Assembly (NCBI GenBank): GCA_030645735.1
Contig: JAUSNP010000006.1
Coordinates: 196,095-260,094 of the forward strand
DNA from: Candidatus Moraniibacteriota bacterium
GTDB taxonomy: Bacteria; Patescibacteriota; Minisyncoccia; Moranbacterales; UBA2206
DNA: 64,000 nt
Direction of reading: 5' to 3'
The translations under genes were made by a program, and so were the position numbers. The notes below the pieces were generated by a model. The model worked only from the letters and a program-made list of their open reading frames with translations, was not told where the DNA came from and ran no database searches. Shown piece after piece: positions 3,036 through 48,062 of this stretch; the first letter of the stretch is position 1, and each line of letters starts with the position of its first letter.

Positions 3036-4007
3036 TTAACCTAAATATTTTTTCAAAAATTTTATTGGAGAAAATAACATAAACTGCAATTTAGATTTGA
3101 TTTCATTGTTATCAGAGATATGCCATGCCTTTGAATAATCAATTTCTGATTTATTATTTTTCAACCTATTCTCATTAGCTTTTTTGTTGGCAAATTTCAT
3201 CGCTTCTGTATACGGAGTTTGCTTCAAAAAAAACACCATCTTTTTATAAAAATTTGCCTCATTTCCCTCCAGTCTTCTTTTTGTTTCCATTGGCAATTCC
3301 TGCATCATCTTGATCCATAAAGCGTTACCTTCAACAACAACTTTTGGACTTATACTGGAAGCTTGAGATTTATGAACTCTATATTTGGCCAACACCGCTG
3401 GGAGATGAATGAACTTATATGTTTTCATCATTTCAAACCACTTTGCATAATCCTGAGTACATTTCAATTTCTCATCAAAAAAACCATATTGATCAAAAGC
3501 CTTCTTTGGTATTAGCAATGTGTTGCCATTTATGTGGCCATGAAACAAGGCATACTCGGGTTTGGACATCAGCATCTTATGATCCAATCTCATTGTTTTT
3601 ATTTTCCTTGCATTTTCATCTATGAATTCAAAATCTGAATATAATATAACATTCCTATCTTTCAGGGTTGCTAGAATTTCTATCTGCTTTTCAAGCCTAT
3701 TAGGCAAAAACAAATCATCATGGCTAAGCCACGAAAAATATTCGCCTTTCATTTCTTTGAGAGCTAAATTCAAAGCCGAAGATACTCCACCATTTTCCTT
3801 GGCAAAGTATCTAATTTTATCCCCATAAGATTTAGCGATTTTTTCCGTATCATCAGTTGATCCATCATTAACAATAATAGTCTCAATATTAACATATGTC
3901 TGAGCAGAAACGCTTTCTATGGCTTCCCTTAAATAATTAGCACCATTAAAAACTGGTATAATTATGGAAACTAATGGGTTAAATTTTTGATTATTAGATT
4001 GCAACAT
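3036..4007 (-). CDS. glycosyltransferase family 2
   Basis: N-terminal VSIIIPVFNGANYLREAIESVSAQTY..IVNDGSTDDT GT2/GT-A signature (DXD region). Confidence 0.85.
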   Translation of the reverse strand: MLQSNNQKFNPLVSIIIPVFNGANYLREAIESVSAQTYVNIETIIVNDGSTDDTEKIAKSYGDKIRYFAKENGGVSSALNLALKEMKGEYFSWLSHDDLFLPNRLEKQIEILATLKDRNVILYSDFEFIDENARKIKTMRLDHKMLMSKPEYALFHGHINGNTLLIPKKAFDQYGFFDEKLKCTQDYAKWFEMMKTYKFIHLPAVLAKYRVHKSQASSISPKVVVEGNALWIKMMQELPMETKRRLEGNEANFYKKMVFFLKQTPYTEAMKFANKKANENRLKNNKSEIDYSKAWHISDNNEIKSKLQFMLFSPIKFLKKYLG

Positions 4008-4019
4008 TTTGTAAATATT

Positions 4020-5117
4020 CTAATTTGTAGTTTTATCAATCATCACTATTTTCTTAAATTTAAATCGTAATATATCCGCTATATTTAGAATAAAAGGTGT
4101 TAAAATAAAATACAATTTTACCCGCAACGCTTCCACTGCAAGAGCAACTATCGCAACAAGAAAAATAAAAGATAAATCAATCAAAAAATAATACTTACTA
4201 CCAAAAAATATAGTGTACGGTAAAAATTTTTGCAAAAATGTAATAAAAAATACATGTATAATATATCCGCCATACACTAAGCCACCAATATAATTTATAA
4301 TTTCACTATTAAATTTCAATCTATAGAAAAAAAGAAACAGAAATATTCCCTGAATAACAATAAACAAAGAAGATAATTCCACATAATTAAGCGTGGTCTT
4401 ACTGGAATTGAAAATACAATATACAAATATAGATATAGGTATAATCATATAACCCAATAAAAAAAATTGTTTTTTAACCTTAATTTCATATTTACCAAAA
4501 TAAGCGCCTACAACATAAATCGCAATAAAAAGAAAAATGCGAGAACTTACTCCCAATAATCCAGTAAATAAGTGCTTATCAAGAAACAACGATGTTGTAG
4601 GATTAATTGTGGAAACAAATAATAGCAAAAGGAATAAATACAAATGCTGCTTCCTTGAACAGTACAATAAGAGCTTATTTATGTAAGGAATGAATAATGC
4701 TAAAATAACCAAGACCACGATGTACCATAAGTGATAAAAAGCACCTACCAAAGAGATGACATCACCAAAGACAAAAATAATTTTTTTAAAAATATCTCCA
4801 TGTATCGGAAGAATGGTCGAATAATCAAACAAAAACAATGCTGGTGCATATATTAAAAAAGGTGCTCCTAATTTCTTAAAATATTTTTTAATATTAAATT
4901 CTTTATTCACCATCAAAAAACCCGATATTAAAATGAAACCAATAACAGCAGGAGCGACAGAAATCCTCATTAGTGATGCATAATACCATGGAAATGAATT
5001 CTGTTGCATGCCACCACTTTTAAGAACGAGCCCCATAGTTGTTACATGTATTGAAATAACCATCAAGAATAACACTATTCTGAATAATTCGATATTGGAT
5101 TTAATTTTTATCATCAA
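4020..5117 (-). CDS. polytopic membrane protein, probable acyltransferase-3 (O-acetyltransferase) family
   Basis: ~10 predicted TM helices; N-term IELFRIVLFLMVISIHV resembles acyltransferase_3 start; sits among glycan genes. Confidence 0.45.
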   Translation of the reverse strand: MMIKIKSNIELFRIVLFLMVISIHVTTMGLVLKSGGMQQNSFPWYYASLMRISVAPAVIGFILISGFLMVNKEFNIKKYFKKLGAPFLIYAPALFLFDYSTILPIHGDIFKKIIFVFGDVISLVGAFYHLWYIVVLVILALFIPYINKLLLYCSRKQHLYLFLLLLFVSTINPTTSLFLDKHLFTGLLGVSSRIFLFIAIYVVGAYFGKYEIKVKKQFFLLGYMIIPISIFVYCIFNSSKTTLNYVELSSLFIVIQGIFLFLFFYRLKFNSEIINYIGGLVYGGYIIHVFFITFLQKFLPYTIFFGSKYYFLIDLSFIFLVAIVALAVEALRVKLYFILTPFILNIADILRFKFKKIVMIDKTTN

Positions 5118-5155
5118 CTTAAATTTAAATAAATATAACTAATTGACTAGAAAAT

Positions 5156-7606
5156 TTATTTCATTCCTATTTTCTTAAGATACTTTTTTATTTTATTGCC
5201 ATAACGAACTGCCCTGCAACTTGCTAATCTATCGTAAGTCATTTGCACATGCTGATACTGTAACTGCAACTGTTTTTTCTCATCTTGCAAATTATTGTTT
5301 TCTTTTTGCAATTGCGCTTTCTCAGATTGCAATACTATATTATCAGGACTATGCAATTTGCTTAAAATCAATTCTCGCTCTAAAAGTTCCACCTTATTGC
5401 AATCAGGCTTAGTTATTTTTAAACTATTGATTAAAAATTTTAGAGACTTTTCTTTTTCAATATCCAAGATTTTATGCACCATATTATAATCAATCAATTC
5501 TTTATAAATATCCAAATTTGTAATATCATCTATGCTTTTTAGAAACCTATTTTTAATATTTAAGGTAGTCAGTAAACTTTCAAGTCTATTATTTCCAGCA
5601 TAATCTCTAGCAATAACAATAAATTGCTTTTTGAATATGATTGCAAATATTACGCAATGATAGGAATCGGTTATGACAAATTCGCTATTCTTAATATAGT
5701 TCAACCAATGGGAAACACTATGATATACAAATCTTTTTTTACCAAATATTTCTTTTTCTATGCCTCTAATGTTCAAGAGGTTGCCATTCATTTTTTCAAT
5801 AACATTGGTCACGAATGGATTTATTTTTATAGCCTCTTCCAATTTTTCATCTAAGCTAAAATATGCTATATATTTTTCGGTGTGCTCCTCGATAATATCA
5901 TCATTTATTATTTCCTGATATCCACTCTCGTCTATTAGAAAAGTTGGATCTAACACGCATTGCGCATCAAAACCAAAAATATTTTTGCAAATATCAACAC
6001 CTTCTTTTTCACGTACAGATATCGCTGAAAAATTCGTTAGTGCATCCTTAACTTTTTTTATCTCATCAATTGTTCCTTTCCAATGGGTCTCAGCAAAGCT
6101 GGGTGCATAGGAAAAGATATTTTTTGAAGGAAAGACAAAATTTAAAAAATATTTTCCAATATCATTCTTAAATACATTACTTAGATAATTATAATTCCAG
6201 ACTTGATCACTGCCGACTACAAAAGTATCAAATTGCTCGTTCAATTTAACCAAATCATTATCGGTCTTGCATACATGTGTCGTTTTGATAAAATTTTCTC
6301 TAAATTTATAAAATCCTATCGCGCATAATTTATCCTCCTTGCTTTCAGGAATTTCAGAAATATAATTAATTATTTTTGCAGTATAGCCAAGATTTTCAAT
6401 ACTTTTCCACAATGCAAATGCCTGCAATGTTGCACCAAAATTACGGCTAGGGAGTCGCATATTGAAAATTCCCACGCAATTTTTCACTTTATCACCTTCA
6501 TTATTCAGATGCTTGGATATCAAATCTCCAATATTACCATCATGCATCAATAATTCTTCAAAAAATTCTTCTCTCTTGGGATGTTTATCGCATGGCAGAC
6601 TCAATGCAAGATTCCCCTGATGAGCTATAGCAAGAGGAACCTTCTCTGCGATTATTTTAGTTTTTATTTCATTAAAAACAGATTCCCCTTTTGCGCTATT
6701 TACTAAAATCAATGAGGTGCCTTTATCATCATCCAATTCATTCTTATAACTACCTATGGCCCAAAAATCCCCCAATGTTATATCTGATTGCCTCGGAAGT
6801 GTCGCAAATGGACAATTGGTACATAGAGGTTTAAGATATAAATTCCCCAAAAATCCTCTTCCAAAGACATCACCATTATTCATTATTTCTTTATGGATTG
6901 TATTATTATTTTCATCATTCATTGAAAAACTGTATGTTTTCCATCCCGTTGATTTGTCTCGAAATTCTATTTTTCTAACCCTTTCGCCAGTTAACTTCTC
7001 AACATCTTTCATATATTTATCAAAAACCAATGGCGAAGGAGTGCCATGACACATCACATCAACAGTGACCAATTTCTCATAATCTTCCTGCAAAAAAGCA
7101 CAAAGTCCAGCAACCTGGCATGGGGTTCCCACAAACAAAACCCAGTTATCCTCTTGGAGCAGTTTTTTGATGTCCAAAAATATGTCGCCAATTTCACTTT
7201 GTAGATACTTTGAGCCTCGCAATTTAGGCAAATCATTCTCGTCAGCTATTATTACATGTCTCAGTTTGTTATCAGCATCAAATCCAGCTCCACAAACAAA
7301 ACCATTCTTACTGAAAATATATTTCGCGATAATGGAAAATAGACCTCCTGACGAAGAATTTTTCCTAATAAACTCATCCTTACTCCACCCAGCATAGCAG
7401 GCAGGATCTGCACTTTGATTTTTTTTGATGTATTTATTGAGAACAGGGCAGGTTTTTCTGCATAAATTACAACTTGTGCATTTTACTTCATCGATAATAG
7501 GATACAAAAAACCTTCAATGTCTTTCTGCATTGAGATTGCTCCACTTGGACAAACACTATAGCAAGCGCTACATCCAGAACATTTATTTTTTGGAACTAT
7601 TTGCAT
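5156..7606 (-). CDS. fusion protein: 2x[4Fe-4S] ferredoxin + FrhB/FdhB-like (F420 hydrogenase beta-like) domain + polysaccharide pyruvyl transferase-like domain + C-terminal coiled coil
   Basis: N-term CSGCSACYSVCPSGAI...CTSCNLCRKTCPV (two Cx2Cx2Cx3CP); FrhB-like domains are known partners of CsaB/WcaK-type pyruvyl transferases in polysaccharide loci; last ~70 aa heptad-rich (ELLERELILSKL...LQKENNNLQDEKKQLQLQYQHVQ). Confidence 0.55.
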   Translation of the reverse strand: MQIVPKNKCSGCSACYSVCPSGAISMQKDIEGFLYPIIDEVKCTSCNLCRKTCPVLNKYIKKNQSADPACYAGWSKDEFIRKNSSSGGLFSIIAKYIFSKNGFVCGAGFDADNKLRHVIIADENDLPKLRGSKYLQSEIGDIFLDIKKLLQEDNWVLFVGTPCQVAGLCAFLQEDYEKLVTVDVMCHGTPSPLVFDKYMKDVEKLTGERVRKIEFRDKSTGWKTYSFSMNDENNNTIHKEIMNNGDVFGRGFLGNLYLKPLCTNCPFATLPRQSDITLGDFWAIGSYKNELDDDKGTSLILVNSAKGESVFNEIKTKIIAEKVPLAIAHQGNLALSLPCDKHPKREEFFEELLMHDGNIGDLISKHLNNEGDKVKNCVGIFNMRLPSRNFGATLQAFALWKSIENLGYTAKIINYISEIPESKEDKLCAIGFYKFRENFIKTTHVCKTDNDLVKLNEQFDTFVVGSDQVWNYNYLSNVFKNDIGKYFLNFVFPSKNIFSYAPSFAETHWKGTIDEIKKVKDALTNFSAISVREKEGVDICKNIFGFDAQCVLDPTFLIDESGYQEIINDDIIEEHTEKYIAYFSLDEKLEEAIKINPFVTNVIEKMNGNLLNIRGIEKEIFGKKRFVYHSVSHWLNYIKNSEFVITDSYHCVIFAIIFKKQFIVIARDYAGNNRLESLLTTLNIKNRFLKSIDDITNLDIYKELIDYNMVHKILDIEKEKSLKFLINSLKITKPDCNKVELLERELILSKLHSPDNIVLQSEKAQLQKENNNLQDEKKQLQLQYQHVQMTYDRLASCRAVRYGNKIKKYLKKIGMK

Positions 7607-7640: not shown

Positions 7641-9893
7641 TTACATTTTTTTATAAATTTTATAATAAATAATTTTAAATAAATTAAACATTGCTTTTCT
7701 AAAAGTAGTTCTGATTTTTTTAGGAATATGATTTTTATTTCTAAACACCGTGGATACAGGAAGATGAGAACAAATATACAATTCCCACTTTAAATACTCC
7801 CTGCTAAATCCTGATTCAATTGTATTATCGTTGCATATTAACCCCGTGGTTGTATTCTTTTTTAATTGTTGCAAAATCAATTCAGAGCTTTTATCAAGAT
7901 GATGATTTGACATTACTTCACCATAAATACTAATCATTTTTTTCACATAAATATCTTTGGAATAATTCTCCTTCGCAAACTCTAAGGATTTTTTACCTCG
8001 CTCAATAATTTCTTTAGGATTATCAATCAATTTTTGCAACTCTTCTGCAAAATATTTTTCACTAACCGCTAAACCACAACCTGGTGAATTAACAACCTCG
8101 GGTAATGCCGAGCCATCACTTTCTAGTGCCAACACCATCTTGCCACAACTCATAGCCTCAATTGCCATCATGCCAAATGTTTCCTGCCTAGAAGGCATTA
8201 GGAATATGTCACAAGCCTGATATAGTCTTGCCAACAATTTATCATCTTTAATCCAGCCATATTCGATGATATTAAATTTATCCTCAAATCCTTTTAACAA
8301 CCCTTTTTGTCCAACAGTAATTAATGTGATTGTTTTCAAATTTTTTAGTCGCGCTAGGGCGTGCTTTATTATATCTAGACCCTTGTACGAGCCAGCATCA
8401 GCTCTAAACATAATAGTAATTGATTTTTCCTGGATGTTAAATTTTGCTTTTGCTAATTTAATATCTACAGCATCAAACAATTTTTGATTAACACCAAATG
8501 GCAGTAAATAAGCCTTTTTTCCTTGCCAAATTGGTGATTGTTCAACTTTATTTTTCATCCAATTTGATGCTACGACAGCCGTAATTTGTGAATTTTGAAT
8601 AGCCTGCTTTTTTAATTCAAAATTTAATGCACTAATATCCTTATCAAGTACAAATGGCTCATTGATATATGAACAGTCCTTGCAATGAACTTGCCATTTT
8701 TTACAATCAAAATGGTGCACGCAATGGCCACCCAAAAAAAATGGATCATGCAATGATAAAATAGTAGGTTTTAATTTAGTCATAATCGGCAAATAATTCA
8801 AGTCTATAATGTTGTGAATTAGATGCAGATGCACAATATCCGATTCAAAAAATATTCTCTCTTGTATCAAGCCCTTTGTAGCGTCTTTAGTATTGAAATC
8901 ATAAGCATATGTGTTGAAATCATCAGACTCTTTAAATAAAACTAACTGTTTAGAATCTATTGCGTTTTTACGTAAATCCAGATGTAAATCATAGCCATTG
9001 AACTTATTTCCGATTAAATCATAGGAAGAAATTTGTAAATTTTTCACTATTTTTTTCTCTATATATTCTAGGGCTATACTATATTCTGCACACTGAAAGA
9101 AATCACGCATATCATGATAAAAAGTCAACTTATCTGAAGCAAGTAATTTTATATCTTCATCAGTTAAATTATTTATTACTGAGATAAATAACGCGCTGTA
9201 TTCCTCATTACCACGACTCTTACTCCGGATTCCTTGCCTCTTTGAAGAATCGCGAGCCGTAACCAACACTTCAGATATTAATTTGTGAGGAAATTTTAAA
9301 AAGGCTCTATAGAAAAATTCAAAATCTTGAGCAACCAACTGACTTTCATCAAACAAGCCAACCGTATCAAAACACACCTTGGGTATTAGCAACGTGCAAC
9401 CATGAGTTTGATTATAAATAACTGGATGAATATTTGATTTTAATCTTGGAGGATATTTGTCTATATGTTTTGCGTAATCAGTCTGATATATTTTTTTATA
9501 TTTTTCATTTATACCATCAAGATCAGACATTATGATAGTGTCTCTATTTTCCAGCTTACTCAACTCATCAACTTGCCGTGCAATCTTAGTTGGATAATAC
9601 ATATCATCGTGGCTTAACCATGAAAAATAGCTACCCTTCATATTTTTTATCCCAACATTCAATGCTGTCGTAGTTCCACCATTTTCTTTTGAAAAATATC
9701 GCACCTTATCCCCATATGATTTAACTATCTCTTCAGTATTGTCTTTCGAACCATCATTAACAACTATAATTTCAATATTTTTATATGTTTGGGCAAGCGC
9801 ACTGTCAATAGCCTCTCTCACATAGTTTGAACCATTATACACTGGTATAACTATTGATATTAAGGGATTGAAATTAATTGTTACCATAATCAT
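7641..9893 (-). CDS. bifunctional glycosyltransferase, N-terminal GT2 + C-terminal GT4 domains
   Basis: N-term ISIVIPVYNGSNYVREAIDSALAQTY..VVNDGSKDNT (GT2); C-term ...QETFGMMAIEAMSCGKMVLALESDGSALPEVV (GT4 EX7E). Confidence 0.8.
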   Translation of the reverse strand: MIMVTINFNPLISIVIPVYNGSNYVREAIDSALAQTYKNIEIIVVNDGSKDNTEEIVKSYGDKVRYFSKENGGTTTALNVGIKNMKGSYFSWLSHDDMYYPTKIARQVDELSKLENRDTIIMSDLDGINEKYKKIYQTDYAKHIDKYPPRLKSNIHPVIYNQTHGCTLLIPKVCFDTVGLFDESQLVAQDFEFFYRAFLKFPHKLISEVLVTARDSSKRQGIRSKSRGNEEYSALFISVINNLTDEDIKLLASDKLTFYHDMRDFFQCAEYSIALEYIEKKIVKNLQISSYDLIGNKFNGYDLHLDLRKNAIDSKQLVLFKESDDFNTYAYDFNTKDATKGLIQERIFFESDIVHLHLIHNIIDLNYLPIMTKLKPTILSLHDPFFLGGHCVHHFDCKKWQVHCKDCSYINEPFVLDKDISALNFELKKQAIQNSQITAVVASNWMKNKVEQSPIWQGKKAYLLPFGVNQKLFDAVDIKLAKAKFNIQEKSITIMFRADAGSYKGLDIIKHALARLKNLKTITLITVGQKGLLKGFEDKFNIIEYGWIKDDKLLARLYQACDIFLMPSRQETFGMMAIEAMSCGKMVLALESDGSALPEVVNSPGCGLAVSEKYFAEELQKLIDNPKEIIERGKKSLEFAKENYSKDIYVKKMISIYGEVMSNHHLDKSSELILQQLKKNTTTGLICNDNTIESGFSREYLKWELYICSHLPVSTVFRNKNHIPKKIRTTFRKAMFNLFKIIYYKIYKKM

Positions 9894-18630: not shown

Positions 18631-18666
18631 TCTGTAGGGGTTCTGTAGGGGTTTCCCTCCTACAGA
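18631..18666. repeat. REP palindromic element copy 1 (partial half-copy + full imperfect copy)
   Basis: tCTGTAGGGG + tCTGTAGGGGTTTCCctCCTACAGa immediately 3' of the RAYT stop codon. Confidence 0.8.
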
Positions 18667-19305
18667 TCACTCTTCCAGCAAATATCTTCTCATCTCACTT
18701 CTGCGTTGATTTATTTCTTTCGCGTTTATATCAACAAATTCACTATAATCACTCCTGTCTTTAAATTGACTTAAAATAATTTCTGAATTACATAATTTTT
18801 CAACACTATCATCCAAGTAGTTTTTCAAACTTGATCTAAATTCTCTTGAATTATGAATAATATTGTTGCCATTAACATAAGCTGACAGGTACAATAAATA
18901 TTCATTGCTATTTACATGCACAGCCTTGAATCTTCCTTGAAATAATGAACCACTTCTTTTGTTCCTGTGATTAAAATATCCTGTATAGCCACCGCTAATG
19001 CGTTTCATAAATTCAGATATACCGCCATCTCTCAACTGTTTTAATATGAAATGAAAATGATTTGGAAGTAAATTATAGGCAATTATCTCAACCAATGCAT
19101 CATTCTGTAGGGGTTTCACCCCTACAGAGTTTGTTTTACTTTTTATATATAAACTAATGACTGGCTCAATTTGATTAAATTCTCTTATTGATTTAAGAAA
19201 TCTTGAATAATCATATTTGTCCAAAAAAATATCTCGCTTCTCCACTCCGCGATTAAATATATGATAATATTCTCCATTTACAAACTCAAAAGAAAAATTT
19301 CCCAT
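18667..19305 (-). CDS. IS200/IS605-family Y1 (HuH) transposase, REP-associated tyrosine transposase (RAYT)-like, carrying an in-frame REP insertion
   Basis: N-term EYYHIFNRGVEKRDIF (YHV..RG..IF motif), HuH motif NHFHFIL, Tyr-containing helix YLLYLSAYVNGN; residues SVGVKPLQ are encoded by REP copy 2. Confidence 0.7.
   Translation of the reverse strand: MGNFSFEFVNGEYYHIFNRGVEKRDIFLDKYDYSRFLKSIREFNQIEPVISLYIKSKTNSVGVKPLQNDALVEIIAYNLLPNHFHFILKQLRDGGISEFMKRISGGYTGYFNHRNKRSGSLFQGRFKAVHVNSNEYLLYLSAYVNGNNIIHNSREFRSSLKNYLDDSVEKLCNSEIILSQFKDRSDYSEFVDINAKEINQRRSEMRRYLLEE
19105..19127. repeat. REP palindromic element copy 2 (inside RAYT ORF, in frame)
   Basis: CTGTAGGGGTTTCACCCCTACAG perfect 9-bp arms, 5-nt loop. 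Confidence 0.85.
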
Positions 19306-19327
19306 CTTTTTTGTTTTATTTTTATAT

Positions 19328-19349
19328 CTGTAGGGGTGAAACCCCTACG
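19328..19349. repeat. REP palindromic element copy 3 (degenerate right arm)
   Basis: CTGTAGGGGTGAAACCCCTACg followed by ttaCCCacac. Confidence 0.75.
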
Positions 19350-19372
19350 TTACCCACACATTATTATTTTTT

Positions 19373-19847: not shown

Positions 19848-19883
19848 CCGTAGGGGTTTCACCCCTACATTACCCCTACATTA
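19848..19883. repeat. REP palindromic element copy 4 (with duplicated right arm)
   Basis: CcGTAGGGGTTTCACCCCTACAttaCCCCTACAtta. Confidence 0.8.
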
Positions 19884-20291
19884 TTTCTTACTTTTATAAA
19901 CCGACATGATTTTGACTAGGGAGGTTACGATGAAGACGGCGTAGAAAATGCCAATTATCAGCATGTTGAAACTGCTGGATATAGCACCGCTGATGCCCAT
20001 GCCACCACTTCGGCCTTGAGAGTTGATCAAGAAAGTGACCAGCATAATCACCGGCACAAACCAGCGGGCAAATCTCCACCAAGCCTGAAAAACTTCGTCA
20101 CGCATTTTGTAGGTGATGAGAGAGAGGAGAAAAACAAACGGAAGAGGAGAAAAAGGATATACAATAAAACCAAAAGTTTCCTTACAAATACCCCGATATG
20201 CTCCGCAAAAATTATATAGAAGCGCGAGCAATAAAAACACAAATGCTCCCCCTGCTATCCCACTTATCCATAATACACTTTTTTTGCTCAT
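19881..20291 (-). CDS. small polytopic membrane protein (4 TM), hypothetical
   Basis: 136 aa, four hydrophobic segments; immediately downstream (18 nt) of the LCAT-like lipase gene. Confidence 0.4.
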   Translation of the reverse strand: MSKKSVLWISGIAGGAFVFLLLALLYNFCGAYRGICKETFGFIVYPFSPLPFVFLLSLITYKMRDEVFQAWWRFARWFVPVIMLVTFLINSQGRSGGMGISGAISSSFNMLIIGIFYAVFIVTSLVKIMSVYKSKK

Positions 20292-23924: not shown

Positions 23925-23947
23925 CTGTAGGGGTGAAACCCCTACAG
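23925..23947. repeat. REP palindromic element copy 5
   Basis: CTGTAGGGGTGAAACCCCTACAG perfect, immediately 3' of the wzm stop. Confidence 0.85.
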
Positions 23948-23949
23948 AG

Positions 23950-24774
23950 CTAGATGTCCTCCGCGATCCGTGGAGCCATTTTTCGGTAGGACCAGATGCT
24001 GAAGGCGAAAGCGCCGAGCACGATGGAGATAAAGGCAGTGTATTGAGTGGAGCTGGCGAAGTGATTATTAATCAAAGATTCTTTGGTGAAGTGGATGATG
24101 AAGGCCAAAGGATTGAGCAGAATCAATGTGTGATATTTAACTGGCAAAGTTACTAAAGGATAGATGATGGGTGAAGCATACATGATGATCATGAGAAGCA
24201 CTTCCCAAATCATGGAAAGGTCACGGAATTTCACGTAGAGTGGTGCCGTTATCAGAGCAAAAGACAGGATTATAATATAAATGAAAACTGAGAACAGCAG
24301 AAATACGCCAATGGCAGCAAGACTTGGCATGAAACCCTTGAGAGCGAAAAAGAAAACAATCACGACTAGATTCATTAGGAATATCAAGGTGGCGTTGATA
24401 GTGGAAGCCAAAATGATGGTCCAACGCGGAACATAAATTTTGGTCACCAATTGTGATTTGCTCAACAGCGAATTCATGCCGGCACCGGTACCCTCAGCAA
24501 AAAAATAGAACATCATCAAAGAAACCAAAAGTTGCAAAGAATAGGTATCTGTTCCATCGACATTTCTTAGATTGAAAACTGAAGAGAAAACAAAATTCAA
24601 AATCGCAAAAGTCAAAAGCGGTTTCAAAAGCGCCCATAAATAGCCCAAAACACTGCCATGATAGCGCAGTTTGAAATCGGTTTTGGCTAGCATCCAAATT
24701 AGCTCTTTGTAATTCTCATGTTGTCTCATATAGAAGTCCATAAAGTCCGTAAAGCTTAAAGTCCATAAAGCCAT
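23950..24774 (-). CDS. wzm: polysaccharide ABC exporter permease (ABC-2 family) Wzm/TagG-like
   Basis: YKELIWMLAKTDFKLRYHGSVLGYLWALLKPLL ABC-2 signature start, 6 TM; first ~14 codons overlap the decamer repeat array so true start may be at a downstream Met. Confidence 0.8.
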   Translation of the reverse strand: MALWTLSFTDFMDFYMRQHENYKELIWMLAKTDFKLRYHGSVLGYLWALLKPLLTFAILNFVFSSVFNLRNVDGTDTYSLQLLVSLMMFYFFAEGTGAGMNSLLSKSQLVTKIYVPRWTIILASTINATLIFLMNLVVIVFFFALKGFMPSLAAIGVFLLFSVFIYIIILSFALITAPLYVKFRDLSMIWEVLLMIIMYASPIIYPLVTLPVKYHTLILLNPLAFIIHFTKESLINNHFASSTQYTAFISIVLGAFAFSIWSYRKMAPRIAEDI

Positions 24775-43585: not shown

Positions 43586-44572
43586 TTATTTAAAAATTCC
43601 TCCACTCAAAAGCTTGTTCAATCTTTCCTTGACCTCCTCTGGAGTGGCTTCATGAGTGGTGTCTTTGGCTACCGCGTCAGAAACAATCATTTCGGCTGAT
43701 TCAGTTTTTTCAACTGGTTGCGCAGGTGTCGCGCTGAAAGAAAAATCTTCTTCGGCGATTGGCAAATTGGCTGGCGCAGCGGCTTTCTTTTCACCGCCAA
43801 TCAACTCATTCATTTTCGGAGCCACCAAAGCAGCTTCTTCTTCAATATTGAAATCTAGAGTTTTTTTATCTCCAAAAGCTTGTCCAAAATCCGGAAAAGA
43901 AAACTTTGGAAACGAGAATGATTTTTTTTCATCTTCCATTTCTCTAGGTTGTTCTACAAATTCTTCAACCATCAAATCTTCCCCATCTGAATTTTTTGCA
44001 AACAAAGTTAGTAAAAATTGAAATAACAATCCCACCAACAACCCCAACACCAAACTGATCATTGCAACTTTTGCAACTGAATCTTTTTTTGTAACTGCGG
44101 AAACGATTGGGCCATCGATCTTTTTCATGCCCAAATCCTCCATCGTATAATATTTACCCATCACAAAAATCAAGTCCGCTGCTGTTTGTTTGTTTACAAT
44201 TTCAGCTTGCAATTGAACATCATTGAAAGTCTTGACTCGCACCACTCCACTTCGACGAATTTGTTCCACTGAAACCATTGCGTTCCAAGCAGACTTTCTT
44301 TGGGCATCTGCCAATTGTGATGCTGAGTCTTCAATGTCAGAATTTTTTTCCAACAGCTTATCATAGAAAGACAACGACATCGGAATCTGCTTAGCATTGC
44401 CAATGATCTGGTCAATATTGCGCGCTGTCCAGTCATTCTTTGGCAACAGCAAGATGTCCGTTTCCACTTGAAAAGTCTTGTTTGTTCCCATCGCAACCAC
44501 AAAAAACACCACTGCCACTACCACGGTAGCGAGCCAAAAAGTCACTGCTTTGAATGTTTGTCGCATGTCCAT
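43586..44572 (-). CDS. bitopic membrane protein with two TM helices flanking a ~180-aa extracytoplasmic domain and acidic C-terminal tail; possible Wzz-like chain-length regulator
   Basis: TM1 TFWLATVVVAVVFFVVAM, TM2 VAMISLVLGLLVGLLFQFLLTLF; start MDMRQ chosen because the upstream in-frame extension contains REP copy 6. Confidence 0.35.
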   Translation of the reverse strand: MDMRQTFKAVTFWLATVVVAVVFFVVAMGTNKTFQVETDILLLPKNDWTARNIDQIIGNAKQIPMSLSFYDKLLEKNSDIEDSASQLADAQRKSAWNAMVSVEQIRRSGVVRVKTFNDVQLQAEIVNKQTAADLIFVMGKYYTMEDLGMKKIDGPIVSAVTKKDSVAKVAMISLVLGLLVGLLFQFLLTLFAKNSDGEDLMVEEFVEQPREMEDEKKSFSFPKFSFPDFGQAFGDKKTLDFNIEEEAALVAPKMNELIGGEKKAAAPANLPIAEEDFSFSATPAQPVEKTESAEMIVSDAVAKDTTHEATPEEVKERLNKLLSGGIFK

Positions 44573-44659
44573 ATTATTTGAAAAATTATGATAATTTACT
44601 CGATTACATAGCTTAGCACTCCGCCCAAAAAAGTCAATAGGCAAACCCACCAAACATTC

Positions 44660-44682
44660 CTGTAGGGGTTTCACCCCTACAG
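44660..44682. repeat. REP palindromic element copy 6
   Basis: CTGTAGGGGTTTCACCCCTACAG perfect. Confidence 0.85.
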
Positions 44683-44775
44683 AACTAATTTTTCCAAATT
44701 TAAAGGGCAGTTGTCGTAATAGACTTCTGCCCTTCATTGGCCTGGTGGTTTCCTAAACCAACCTTAGCCAAAATC

Positions 44776-45354: not shown

Positions 45355-46749
45355 TTACGGGTTGAATTCGGTTGGGACTTTCCTTCCGTCCTCGATGCGC
45401 TTTCTGACCACAAAGTCATTCAACGCATTTTGGCCATGCAGAACATAGGTCACTCCCGCCCAAGTCATATATCCGTCAGCCATAAGCTTGTCGGCCTCTA
45501 CTTGATGCTTGGAGATGTCCCATCCCAACTGATGATTGCTCTCTGCGATCTGATAATCATTTTCTGCCAGACGCAGATATTTCACGTCACGCGTACAAGC
45601 ATACAGCTCGATATAATCATGCGCACGCTCCAACCGCTTAGTCATGTTGTAGAAAGACCAGCGATCACAACCATCAATCTCGTCTGAGTGCTTTTTGAGC
45701 AACTCATTGAACTTGGTAATTGTTTCGTTGGAGCATTTTGAACACGGTGGTTCCGCAATCTTCGCAGGCGGCGGAACAGCGGGTGTGGTTGTCGCAAGTG
45801 CCGGCTCACTCTTGCAAGTGACATTGACATTAATCGTCCTTTCCTCAGAACGAGTGTCAGCCAGCGGCGTGGATGTAACCGGCTTTTCATCGGCCAGCGG
45901 TTTTTTCTCAGCCTTCACAGGCGGAGATGTGACCAGAAACGCTGCATACTCGTCACTGAGACAAACCGCCTCAGCTTCCCAGTATCTCTCATTTCGCACT
46001 CGATTATTTCCGAGTTGACCGCCAACTGCGGCTGCTGTTCCTGTTTTAGAACCAACCTCCGAGGCCGCTGCTGACAATCCTAATGAGTTACCATAAGTAG
46101 CCGTCTCATGCTGGCGTCCACCACGGATTGCATAATACTGAAATCCGAGATTCACGCAAGCGTCCTCAATAGACGCCTCAACCCGAGCCTGCGGAGCTCT
46201 GGTGTCGCCCGCCAATGTCATGCTAGCAGTACTCCACTTTTCATCCTTTGGCCAAGGCAGGCACTGCACCTCTTTGACCTCACGATCAATCGGTTCGGAA
46301 ATTTCCGTGATGTCCAAAGACTTTCGCCCCTTGAACAAGTCATGAAAAAATCCCGTACCCCCTTTGGCGCGCCTAATCTTCTCGACTGAAACTGGCTCGG
46401 AGCTCGGGCAATATTCTGCCCATTCTCCACTCTCGGGAGCTGTTCCTGGAATAATCCCAGTCACAAACCCCGGCGCCGCAAGAAACTGGCGCGGAGTATT
46501 GACATGTTGCCCACCGCCATTAACAGCAATGTCGCCAATGGTCGCATCGGCGTCGCCGCCAGTGCCGATAGCCAAGCTTTCGGCGTCGCCACCGGTTGCG
46601 GTGTTGTTGTTGGTATTGGTACTGGTATTGTCCAGACCAATACCGATGTTGTTTCCGCTTCCCGATACATCGCCGACATCGCCGGCGAATACATTAGCAG
46701 AGAACAACAACGCCATAGCCATCACTACAAAAATCTGCATCCTTTTCAT
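45355..46749 (-). CDS. secreted hypothetical protein (464 aa) with Thr/Asn/Gly-rich N-terminal module paralogous to the LPXTG protein
   Basis: Signal peptide MKRMQIFVVMAMALLFSANVFA; shared module NTSTNTNNNTATGGDAESLAIGTGGDADATIGDIAVNGGG; strong RBS AGGAGA. Confidence 0.5.
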   Translation of the reverse strand: MKRMQIFVVMAMALLFSANVFAGDVGDVSGSGNNIGIGLDNTSTNTNNNTATGGDAESLAIGTGGDADATIGDIAVNGGGQHVNTPRQFLAAPGFVTGIIPGTAPESGEWAEYCPSSEPVSVEKIRRAKGGTGFFHDLFKGRKSLDITEISEPIDREVKEVQCLPWPKDEKWSTASMTLAGDTRAPQARVEASIEDACVNLGFQYYAIRGGRQHETATYGNSLGLSAAASEVGSKTGTAAAVGGQLGNNRVRNERYWEAEAVCLSDEYAAFLVTSPPVKAEKKPLADEKPVTSTPLADTRSEERTINVNVTCKSEPALATTTPAVPPPAKIAEPPCSKCSNETITKFNELLKKHSDEIDGCDRWSFYNMTKRLERAHDYIELYACTRDVKYLRLAENDYQIAESNHQLGWDISKHQVEADKLMADGYMTWAGVTYVLHGQNALNDFVVRKRIEDGRKVPTEFNP

Positions 46750-46964
46750 GGTGTCTCTCCTGAAATCTTATTGGCACGATTGCGCGAACACACCCCTACG
46801 GCGGTCCATCAGCAATCGGCGAATTCTTCACTACAATATATATCATCCGAATTCATAACTGAGTATTCGGTTGTCAAGGGACATAAAAATCTATAATTTC
46901 ACAGCGTCCGTCAAAAAACGACCGACACTGAATCGAACATAGATAGAACTTTAAGGAACCTCGT

Positions 46965-47037: not shown

Positions 47038-47160
47038 CTTAATAAAATCACTGTCATTGCGAATGAGTTCCGCCGCAGAACGACTGTGTGGCAATCTCAA
47101 GTTTCAGTGCATAGAACAAAGGGATTGCCACACTCCTTTCAGTCGCTCGCAATGACAAAT
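47038..47160 (-). terminator. long compound hairpin + U-tract, probable terminator of the sortase operon
   Basis: outer stem GTCATTGCGA/TCGCAATGAC (47055-64/47148-57), inner stem GTGTGGCAATC/GATTGCCACAC; minus-strand downstream GAUUUUAUU. Confidence 0.45.
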
Positions 47161-47165
47161 AAATG

Positions 47166-48062
47166 TTATTTCATCAACTCTGCTTTCACGATGAGTCTTT
47201 TGAAGTTTGTGCCCAACGGCCAACAAGTGGAAAGTGTCAAAGATGAATTCTGTGTCTCAGCAAAAATTCGCTCATCGTCTGGCACGGTCACAAATTTGTC
47301 GCCCACCGCATAACGATTCACAATTATTTTGCCATTTTTTTGCATAGATCTAACAATGATTGTATCGCCTTGTTCCAAATCATTTAGATTTTTGAAGATG
47401 TGATTGAAGTTTCCCTTGGCCCAAATATAATTGCTAGAATGGCCAGAAATGACCGCGTTGCCATTTTGTCCTGGAGCGGCCGTCTTGAAGAAATGACTCA
47501 CGCCATTTTCCAATTCCGACAACATATTCTTTTCATCATTGCTCAATGACCAAACCATTGGCGCCTCCACACCGATTTTTTCAATTTGAATGTTTACCAT
47601 CGGTTTGGAATCTCCAGGTGCGTCTGGATCATAGCCATTGGCAATTTCCTGTTTGTCAGAAAAACCATCTTTGTCAGTGTCGACATTGTTCGGATCCGTG
47701 CCGTGCGTATATTCCAAATAGTTCGCTAGGCCGTCGCCATCCGCATCAGCGTCATAGATGTTGGCGCCGGTTAGATTGTTGGCTCTGGCCCAATCGACAA
47801 ACCCAATCGAACCAACTTCAGTTGAGCCAATTCTTTTTTGCAATTCATCATCAGTTTGAGTCTTTTGAATCGACCCTGTGATCTGAGTTGTTTTTCCAGT
47901 CAAGAAAGAAAAATCCAAATTAACCAGATAGAATGCCCCCATGAATACAGCCAAAGAAAGGCTGGCGATAAGCGCAGCCCTCTTGGAATACTGTTTGATT
48001 TTAACCAGTATTTTGCTCATTTTATATAAATGAAACGATTTATTATTTTGTGCGAGTTGCAA
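47166..48062 (-). CDS. sortase (transpeptidase) with N-terminal TM anchor and thrombospondin type-3-like Ca-binding repeats
   Basis: Sortase His region AVISGHSSNY and TLxTC motif SSLTLSTCWP; TSP3-like DADADGDGLANYLEYTHGTDPNNVDTDKDGFSDKQE. Confidence 0.75.
   Translation of the reverse strand: MQLAQNNKSFHLYKMSKILVKIKQYSKRAALIASLSLAVFMGAFYLVNLDFSFLTGKTTQITGSIQKTQTDDELQKRIGSTEVGSIGFVDWARANNLTGANIYDADADGDGLANYLEYTHGTDPNNVDTDKDGFSDKQEIANGYDPDAPGDSKPMVNIQIEKIGVEAPMVWSLSNDEKNMLSELENGVSHFFKTAAPGQNGNAVISGHSSNYIWAKGNFNHIFKNLNDLEQGDTIIVRSMQKNGKIIVNRYAVGDKFVTVPDDERIFAETQNSSLTLSTCWPLGTNFKRLIVKAELMK

Follow-up and report, generated by a model that had tools for sequence, protein, structure and literature searches.

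Genes for RAYTs (repetitive extragenic palindrome-associated tyrosine transposases, also called TnpA-REP) are found in about a quarter of sequenced species and in many phyla (PMC5581495, PMC6006769), and they take their name from the repetitive extragenic palindromes (REPs) with which they are associated. Here we describe a locus of this kind in a 64,000-nucleotide stretch of the genome of a Candidatus Moraniibacteriota bacterium (contig JAUSNP010000006.1, positions 196,095 to 260,094; hereafter the window, with positions counted from its first letter), in which a RAYT-like gene on the minus strand (18667-19305) has copies of a short palindrome on both sides and a further copy in frame inside it. 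An initial annotation of this DNA had recognised a REP-RAYT type association, and this holds, since on either side of the Y1 HuH gene stands its cognate palindrome with the GTAG foot; its remark that such associations are described mainly in Proteobacteria is out of date, given the distribution just cited. We consider it likely that the locus represents a Patescibacteria-type 'REPtron', that is, a vertically inherited, low-copy RAYT-like gene for a Y1 HuH nuclease/ligase of single-stranded DNA, embedded in copies of the short double-foot palindrome (5' GTAG...CTAC 3') that its product recognises.

The closest described systems come from the classification of TnpA-Y1 proteins by Quentin, Siguier, Chandler and Fichant (2018), in which subclass 2.4, corresponding to RAYT group 4 of Bertels et al. 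(2017), has 'double foot' REPs and, as its 'unique feature', in-frame REPs inside the tnpA-REP gene, generally between the HuH and Tyr motifs; some members of subclass 2.8 likewise carry in-frame intragenic REPs (PMC6006769). The locus studied here resembles subclass 2.4 in that the gene is flanked by cognate REPs with a double foot GT[AG]G ... C[TC]AC, the copy number is low, the intragenic REPs lie in frame in a variable peripheral region, and the HuH motif fits NH[IFV]H (NHFH in the window protein). However, the insertions of subclass 2.4 lie between HuH and Tyr (beta3:alphaC), where none was found here; ours precede the HuH motif, in the stretch from helix A to strand 2, and relatives have them after the Tyr helix as well. 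The motifs differ too, with WQ and YIxNNP in subclass 2.4 against FQ (FQG) and YVNGN (YVNGNN, a partial fit) here, as do the hosts, which are Cyanobacteria, Bacteroidetes and others in the one case and Patescibacteria in the other. Moreover, the family motifs NH[FY]H, FQG and Y[VI]NxN are as much like those of subclass 2.1 (FQ, NH[YF]H) as like those of 2.4 (PMC6006769 Table 1), and because these mixed signals come from a comparison of motifs only, we assign the family to no subclass of Quentin or group of Bertels. An in-frame REP inside a tnpA-REP gene is therefore already known from the 2018 work, and what is new is the variant in which its position is fixed across a whole family in Patescibacteria; the literature searched contained no paper that mentions RAYTs together with Patescibacteria.

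Three further systems share part of these features. The RAYT of Escherichia coli (4ER8; subclass 2.2), which is associated with REPs and bacterial interspersed mosaic elements (BIMEs), is the best structural match, is likewise a HuH and Tyr enzyme with a gene flanked by REPs, and recognises a GTAG-footed hairpin on single-stranded DNA (ssDNA); its REPs, in contrast, are imperfect and bulged, number in the hundreds and do not occur inside the gene, and the window protein, 17% identical to it, is 47 residues longer, with a linker of about 28 residues and a C-terminal helical tail. The REPtrons of group 3 or subclass 2.5 in Stenotrophomonas and Pseudomonas (PMC8266576) come close in the palindrome itself, which is short, perfect and GTAG-footed with the loop as its sole asymmetry, but they comprise hundreds of copies, none reported inside a gene, and their proteins belong to another subclass with other motifs. 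The TnpA proteins of the IS200/IS605 group (IS608, ISDra2) have the fold, the HuH/Tyr chemistry and the recognition of hairpins on ssDNA in common with our protein, whereas mobility of the whole element, multiple copies, distinct left-end and right-end hairpins and the Y---Q motif were not seen here. Finally, the intragenic REPs and Rickettsia palindromic elements (Di Nocera et al. 2013, PMC3733652) are also short palindromic repeats translated in frame in functional genes, presumably in permissive loops, but they are scattered over unrelated genes, while here the host is the cognate enzyme and the positions are fixed across the family.

The RAYT-like protein and the palindromes of the window

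The gene at 18667-19305 encodes a protein of 212 residues (MDO8241168.1, annotated as 'transposase' on a 329,606-bp contig of a Candidatus Moranbacteria metagenome-assembled genome, MAG). The open reading frame (ORF) matched Pfam PF01797 (Y1_Tnp) with 33.8 bits (gathering score 23, E 4.3e-8), and only residues 65-146 align to this model because of the long linker in the protein. An N-terminal YHIFNRG strand is followed by the HuH motif N82-H83-F84-H85 and by the catalytic Tyr143 in SAYVNGN, and H83, H85 and Y143, together with the N-terminal H15, N18, R19 and G20, are invariant in an alignment of 29 homologs. Searching the PDB by sequence with the family profile yielded marginal matches only (E ~0.1, to ISDra2 TnpA), so that a fold search was needed. 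The AlphaFold2 model has a mean predicted local distance difference test score (pLDDT) of 80 and a predicted template modelling score (pTM) of 0.80, with Y143 in a modelled helix at 134-145, and its top Foldseek match was 4er8_A, the E. coli RAYT-REP complex (E 2e-6, probability 1.0), followed by the IS608, ISDra2 and IS200 transposases. The IS200/RAYT hallmarks initially ascribed to this ORF are thus borne out by the Pfam match, the invariant residues and the fold, and the ORF encodes an intact Y1 HuH enzyme.

Copies of the palindrome were searched with the pattern CTGTAGGGG-N5-CCCCTACAG, using 100 dinucleotide-preserving shuffles of the window as the control. This pattern gave six matches in the 64-kb window against 0.00 expected (none in the 100 shuffles), while the heptamer core GTAGGGG was present 14 times against 1.7 expected. 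The six copies initially listed, numbered here 1 to 6 by position, therefore stand, but their description as six perfect 23-nt palindromes applies to three of them (19105-19127, 23925-23947 and 44660-44682); the palindrome at 18643-18665 has one mismatch, and those at 19328-19350 and 19848-19870 have two each, in outer positions. Copies are present in either orientation, and when folded as ssDNA, a check that had been proposed from the start, they gave the expected hairpin (-7.5 to -11.1 kcal/mol, z -3.1 to -6.1). The element has the form CT-GTAG-GGG...CCC-CTAC-AG, a 'double foot' that includes the 5' GT[AG]G foot expected of a REP.

Three of these copies belong to the gene. The internal palindrome, which we call site 1 (19105-19127), is perfect over 23 nt, can be extended to an 11-bp stem, and is translated in frame as S60-V-G-V-K-P-L-Q67, as originally noted. 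The 5'-flank palindrome (19328-19350) lies 22 nt upstream of the ATG and has a perfect core, GTAGGGGT-gaa-ACCCCTAC, with the two mismatches outside it and the loop inverted relative to the internal copy. The 3'-flank feature (18632-18665) consists of the element itself at 18643-18665, 1 nt past the TGA stop, and of an 11-nt tandem copy of one arm at 18632-18642, and it is to this arm duplicate that the start first given for the copy, 18631, belongs.

The other three copies are dispersed. One (19848-19882) lies between two small membrane-protein ORFs, 10 nt past the stop of the ORF at 19881-20291, and combines an element with two outer mismatches (19848-19870) with tandem 11-nt arms (19861-19871 and 19872-19882). 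The perfect copy at 23925-23947 lies 2 nt past the stop of an ABC-2 permease gene (23950-24774, minus), and that at 44660-44682 lies in the gap upstream of a capsule/Wzz-like gene. The gene is thus flanked by a palindrome that is also found elsewhere, with three more copies in the window, as is expected of a REPtron, and the same is true of about 80% of its homologs. All five extragenic copies lie in short gaps of a minus-strand gene array, from 1 to ~93 nt past a stop codon, in agreement with the early observation that most copies sit at gene 3' ends. Scans for promoter and terminator consensus sequences around the gene and copy 6 gave numbers near the shuffle expectation and were uninformative. 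Separately, a lone GTAGGGG half-site without a partner arm was seen at 46793-46799 (minus), in the gap upstream of the gene at 45355-46749, and may be a decayed copy.

Copy 6 had been presented as a second in-frame case, because the mechanical ORF at 43586-44737 reads SVGVKPLQ at residues 18-25, in what was taken for an N-terminal extension of the Wzz-like protein. In the same genome, however, the annotated protein (328 residues, 100% identical) starts at Met56 of the mechanical ORF (ATG at ~44572), which we regard as the real start. Of 96 homologs, 94 cover ~76-86% of the ORF and the other two 89% and 92%, leaving the first 55 residues uncovered; most of these homologs have ~270-350 residues, and a transmembrane segment directly follows Met56/58. 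On these three grounds (the annotated start, the coverage by homologs and the place of the transmembrane segment) copy 6 is extragenic, and the general proposal of a frame-preserving insertion of 27-30 nt loses its second example. The same artefact of start annotation was noted by Di Nocera et al. for REPs at apparent N-termini (PMC3733652).

Hairpin positions across the family

In a database search the protein had more than 5,600 relatives, nearly all of 205-240 residues and from Patescibacteria wherever the source organism was named, with at least 565 family matches in species-representative genomes. We collected the loci of 79 homologs from species-representative genomes and further loci of closer relatives (referred to by L numbers), and mapped the perfect palindromes around each gene. 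The sequence of the palindrome proved to be locus-specific, and it occurs at up to four places per gene: in the 5' flank, at site 1, at a second internal site (site 2) and in the 3' flank. Site 1, the position of the window's internal copy, lies in frame 10-20 residues before the HuH motif, and site 2, which is empty in the window gene, lies in frame just after the Tyr helix, at about residues 145-168. For the layout counts, made on 83 homologs with the window included, a hairpin was defined as 10 bp with at most two non-Watson-Crick pairs, the 5'-flank zone as the 110 nt upstream of the ATG, and the 3'-flank zone as the region that begins 40 nt ahead of the stop and extends 70 nt beyond it. 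A hairpin was present in the 5' flank in 70/83 homologs, at site 1 in 71/83, in the 3' flank in 67/83 and at site 2 in 35/68, while of 1408 random 80-nt windows drawn from these loci only 10 contained a perfect 10-bp hairpin. In most loci the perfect 5' hairpins end 3-25 nt before the ATG, and the 3' hairpins start 0-25 nt past the stop or overlap the last codons.

The palindromes of most relatives read (C)ACTT[AG]G...C[CT]AAGT(G), unlike the GTAG foot of the window, and within this CTT[AG]G class the reading register is constant, with the centre of the palindrome at codon position 2 in 25/25 site-1 and 18/18 site-2 cases. As a consequence of this centring the encoded peptide is 'reverse-complement symmetric' (L..K, G..S/P/T/A, R..S, H..M, N..V), and the peptides of the class are indeed symmetric and made of small residues, such as LGGSTSK, LGHSMSK and LGNSVSK (L003, L013, L045, L051 and L054 are among the loci). 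The fixed register is compatible with common descent, with selection that favours a flexible linker, or with the two together. Five loci (L001, L018, L061, L076 and L078) carry at site 1 a doublet of two inverted copies that resembles a REPIN (REP doublet forming hairpins).

These data bear directly on the explanation first offered for the locus, namely that a mobile REP had recently jumped in frame into its own transposase gene, that the gene is an insertion-tolerant or inactivated variant, and that the partial arm duplications reflect current activity. The internal copy does match the dispersed copies perfectly, insertions of REPs into genes are documented (PMC3733652), and arm duplications exist at copies 1 and 4 and elsewhere in the family. 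However, an in-frame palindrome occupies the same loop in most of the 83 homologs, which are 42-89% identical, and in syntenic orthologs, and xVGVxPLQ is the consensus at the position of the window's S60-Q67 in homologs down to ~55% identity. The catalytic residues are all intact, and the ratio of nonsynonymous to synonymous substitution rates (dN/dS) between the window gene and its ortholog in L088 is 0.083, which points to strong purifying selection on the gene. A single register in 43/43 CTT[AG]G-class cases, at two sites, is not what random recent insertion predicts, and copy 6, the second supposed in-frame case, has turned out to be extragenic. The comparison suggested at the outset, with homologs that lack the 9-residue insert, leads to the same result: in homologs free of a hairpin the loop is only ~2-6 residues shorter, several of these loops hold decayed cognate palindromes, and a clean gap of 9-10 codons is missing, so that the simple picture of an insertion and an empty site fails. 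Many family members without a palindrome at site 1 or site 2 nevertheless keep intact genes. A recent or inactivating jump is therefore very unlikely, and the internal copy is an old feature of the whole family.

The arm duplications themselves are real, as had been reported for copies 1 and 4. In these copies one arm of the hairpin, together with 1-4 bases, is repeated in tandem next to the palindrome with a period of 11-14 nt, and a degenerate form is found at copy 3. Such duplications recur at 18 of 170 hairpin sites of other loci (L035, L040, L062, L070, L090 and others), with three tandem arms in L062 and, in L040, a duplication that lies in frame inside the gene. They could have arisen through slippage at the hairpin, or through cleavage and rejoining that were imprecise, and they may, but need not, indicate recent activity.

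Concerted evolution and constraint on the DNA

Within a locus the arms of the palindromes share an identity of 0.81, and 70% of the pairs are identical, against 0.38 and 0.8% for site-1 copies compared between loci. In L092, whose protein is 63% identical to that of the window, TGTAGCGG.ccgga.CCGCTACA stands in the 5' flank, at site 1 and in the 3' flank; in L094, TGTAGCGG.ctaaa is present at four places; and L090 has TGTAGGGGT with the loop ctc or gag. The loops of one locus are identical or exact reverse complements of each other. When 36 site-1 hairpins are aligned without gaps, each of the 10 stem pairs has changed on both sides and controls slid along the sequence collapse, although this set was chosen for Watson-Crick stems, so that its percentage of pairing is partly circular and not independent evidence. 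Overall, the comparisons show that the gene-associated copies of a locus evolve in concert.

The clearest case is that of L088, a syntenic ortholog 82% identical to the window gene. Its intergenic DNA can no longer be aligned with that of the window and the synonymous divergence (pS 0.63) is near saturation, yet all three gene-associated palindromes have been kept. At site 1 the stems are identical and the loop has changed from gaa to ttc, its reverse complement, replacing Lys64 by Ser. Elsewhere in the family, the palindrome GTAGACGTcggACGTCTAC yields the peptide VVDVGRLQ in L005 and, read in another frame, SRRRTST in L042, the DNA being identical in both.

These observations argue against the alternative that the internal peptide (xVGVxPLQ or LGGSxSK) matters for the protein and that the extragenic copies are fragments derived from the gene. 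This alternative would account for the appearance of the motif as a consensus in the protein alignment and for the exclusive use of one register in the CTT[AG]G class, but the peptide is wholly different between loci while the palindromy of the DNA is kept, the same DNA is read in two frames, and the loop flip exchanges K for S. Furthermore, residues 56-66 are the sole internal stretch modelled with pLDDT <50, within the 28 residues that link helix 30-43 to strand 72-80, and the same place also accommodates insertions of 13-18 residues encoded by REPIN-like doublets. We regard this alternative as hardly credible. A further possibility, that the palindromes act as RNA structures (stabilisers or attenuators of the mRNA), was discarded: among the mispairs of imperfect intragenic copies G.T (14) is no commoner than A.C (16), so that nothing points to an RNA structure under selection, and the copies occur in either orientation. 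The two-frame reading, the loop flip that changes K to S, the lack of a G.T bias and the low pLDDT of the loop together show that the constraint is on the DNA palindrome and not on the peptide.

Maintenance at the DNA level could also mean that the hairpins, fixed at four positions, function as cis-elements through which a module regulates itself, or as master templates, each preserved by selection at its own site and not by copying. The enzyme would then bind or cut the hairpins of its own gene, in ssDNA or in the mRNA, and so throttle its own expression. The fixed positions suit such a role, with the 5' hairpin ending 3-25 nt before the ATG, where the ribosome must load, and the 3' hairpin placed 0-25 nt past the stop or over the last codons in most loci with a perfect copy, as does the persistence of the copies while synonymous sites approach saturation. 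There is also a precedent, since IS200 represses tnpA through a 5' stem-loop. In addition, loops are conserved within each locus, and loops are determinants of recognition in related systems (PMC8266576). Against this, the orientation of the loop at each site is free between loci, about half being inverted, which ill fits a strand-specific role; many members without site 1 or site 2 have intact genes; and a G.U bias that would suggest RNA structure is absent. The free orientation, and the fact that genes with empty sites can be intact, tilt the balance away from a strictly regulatory role, and we hold this alternative to be improbable.

One locus combines two palindromes. In L093, the 5' flank and the internal site carry the variant TGTAGCGGT, while the variant TGTAGACGT is found in the 3' flank and also downstream of the adjacent HtrA-like gene (coordinates 8108-8130, 9075-9095, 9352-9372 and 9825-9845). 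This second variant recurs unchanged as the palindrome of L005 and L042, which are unrelated loci, and a third variant belongs to L014, another family member in the MAG from which L093 comes (JASEHL01).

Inheritance, dispersal and a possible mechanism

Several loci indicate that the gene is inherited vertically. The window and L088 share an LCAT-like gene upstream and a glycosyltransferase gene downstream, L090 and L094 both carry the RAYT-like gene after pgk, and L093 and L095 carry it after an HtrA-like gene; where two family members occur in one MAG they are divergent and not near-identical. Identity in the catalytic core and identity of the extragenic flank palindromes are correlated weakly but significantly (Spearman 0.19; a value as high arose in 9 of 2000 Mantel permutations), which is what coevolution of enzyme and REP predicts. 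This evidence must be set against the idea that the unit is an ordinary IS200-like insertion sequence that moves as a whole and leaves solo palindromes as its footprints. The compact block of ~720 nt, made up of hairpin, gene and hairpin, and the Y1 transposase fold agree with that idea, but the orthologs lie in conserved neighbourhoods of different genomes, the copies that share a MAG have diverged, both ends are the same symmetric palindrome instead of distinct left-end and right-end hairpins, and the Tyr motif is Y-x-N-x-N and not the IS200 signature Y---Q (PMC6006769 Table 1). Hence an IS200-like element has very little probability; low copy number, purifying selection, synteny and divergent paralogs are the traits of a domesticated RAYT/TnpA-REP and not of an insertion sequence of the IS200 type.

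Some results weigh against reading the locus as a REPtron. The protein reached only 31.6 bits with NCBIfam NF047646, the REP-associated tyrosine transposase equivalog, for which the cut-off is 80, and it is therefore related to, but outside, this curated group. Its Tyr motif, Y143-V-N-G-N147-N, is without the Pro of the class-2 signature Y---NP, and this is so across the family, in which the Asn at +4 from the Tyr (N147) is invariant. Dispersal is also modest: classical REP families have hundreds of copies, whereas here three copies lie away from the gene in the 64-kb window, the 0.99 Mb of flanks around 73 homolog loci contain 26 cognate copies (2.6 per 100 kb), and the exact 23-mer of the window was found on only 8 contigs of a metagenome collection, 2 of them next to RAYT homologs. 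Besides, the concerted evolution could result from selection for binding at each site and not from the replacement of copies, and binding, cleavage and copying by the enzyme of this family are predicted from homology. We nevertheless favour the REPtron, and the palindrome of the window is probably the DNA element on which the RAYT-like enzyme acts.

If so, the chemistry of the family and the work on 4ER8 and IS608 suggest that the enzyme would bind the hairpin extruded on ssDNA and would cut and rejoin at its foot. Because the stem is perfectly symmetric, the loop alone tells the strands apart, and the orientation of this asymmetric loop would decide which strand is the substrate; in other REPs that are perfect palindromes, replacing the loop by its reverse complement abolished binding and cleavage (Corneloup et al. 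2021, PMC8266576). Strand transfer by the enzyme, with a preference for the surroundings of its own gene, or template switching driven by the hairpin, may then repeatedly overwrite or flip the resident copies, keeping them perfect and matched to the specificity of the enzyme. Point mutation cannot make ttgag from ctcaa, so whole-hairpin replacement or inversion must occur, and the reading frame survives such a replacement because its length is constant. Coding copies would be tolerated because they lie in permissive linkers and in a register that gives small, flexible residues.

Other features of the window and of the related loci were recorded in passing. A nested inverted repeat of ~110 nt lies at 47048-47158 (minus), between the genes at 47166-48062 and 45355-46749, with an outer stem GTCATTGCGA...TCGCAATGAC and an inner stem GTGTGGCAATC...GATTGCCACAC (RNA fold -46.5 kcal/mol, z -4.1); it matched no Rfam family at E up to 1. 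Upstream of the ORF at 768-1814, a SAM (S-box) riboswitch (581-706, +) scored 50 bits (gathering score 44.4), and the stretch 4001-6000, within a run of glycosyltransferase-type and large ORFs, has a G+C content of 0.28 against 0.35-0.47 elsewhere. Among the relatives, L090 (13029-14414) and L091 (7600-8985) contain a pair resembling a diversity-generating retroelement (bAvd + RVT_1) ~3 kb from the RAYT homolog, and the cognate palindrome overlaps the last five bases of its reverse-transcriptase gene. Lastly, the MAGs of L005, L011, L015, L017, L019, L020, L024 and others are in many cases titled 'uncultured Gammaproteobacteria', 'Bdellovibrionales' or 'Candidatus Saccharibacteria'; as they carry members otherwise seen in Parcubacteria-type genomes, these organism labels look unreliable.

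The locus bears on two questions about RAYT/TnpA-REP systems, namely what the proteins do for their hosts and how new copies of REPs arise. Patescibacteria have genomes of ~1 Mb with very little repetitive DNA, and they have nonetheless kept a large family of RAYT-like genes. The findings extend the 2018 report of in-frame REPs as 'unique' to subclass 2.4, and they carry a warning for annotation and alignment, as part of what appears as a 'conserved motif' of this family is a translated DNA palindrome. It is conceivable, if doubtful at present, that the position-fixed hairpins are working parts of a self-referential module that limit expression, allow the enzyme to cut its own gene, or serve as protected master copies that replenish the small REP population of the genome; if this were true, it would explain why perfect hairpins that coevolve with the enzyme are found throughout the family, and would provide a minimal, tractable system for the function of a domesticated RAYT. 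In this family most of the visible palindrome population lies on or inside the gene of the enzyme at fixed positions. Nature has thereby provided its own experiments, in the form of loop flips accompanied by an amino-acid change, one palindrome read in two frames, and sites that are occupied or empty, showing that the hairpin is maintained at the level of the DNA, and such loci could be used to test the rules of recognition and a possible self-regulation of these enzymes.

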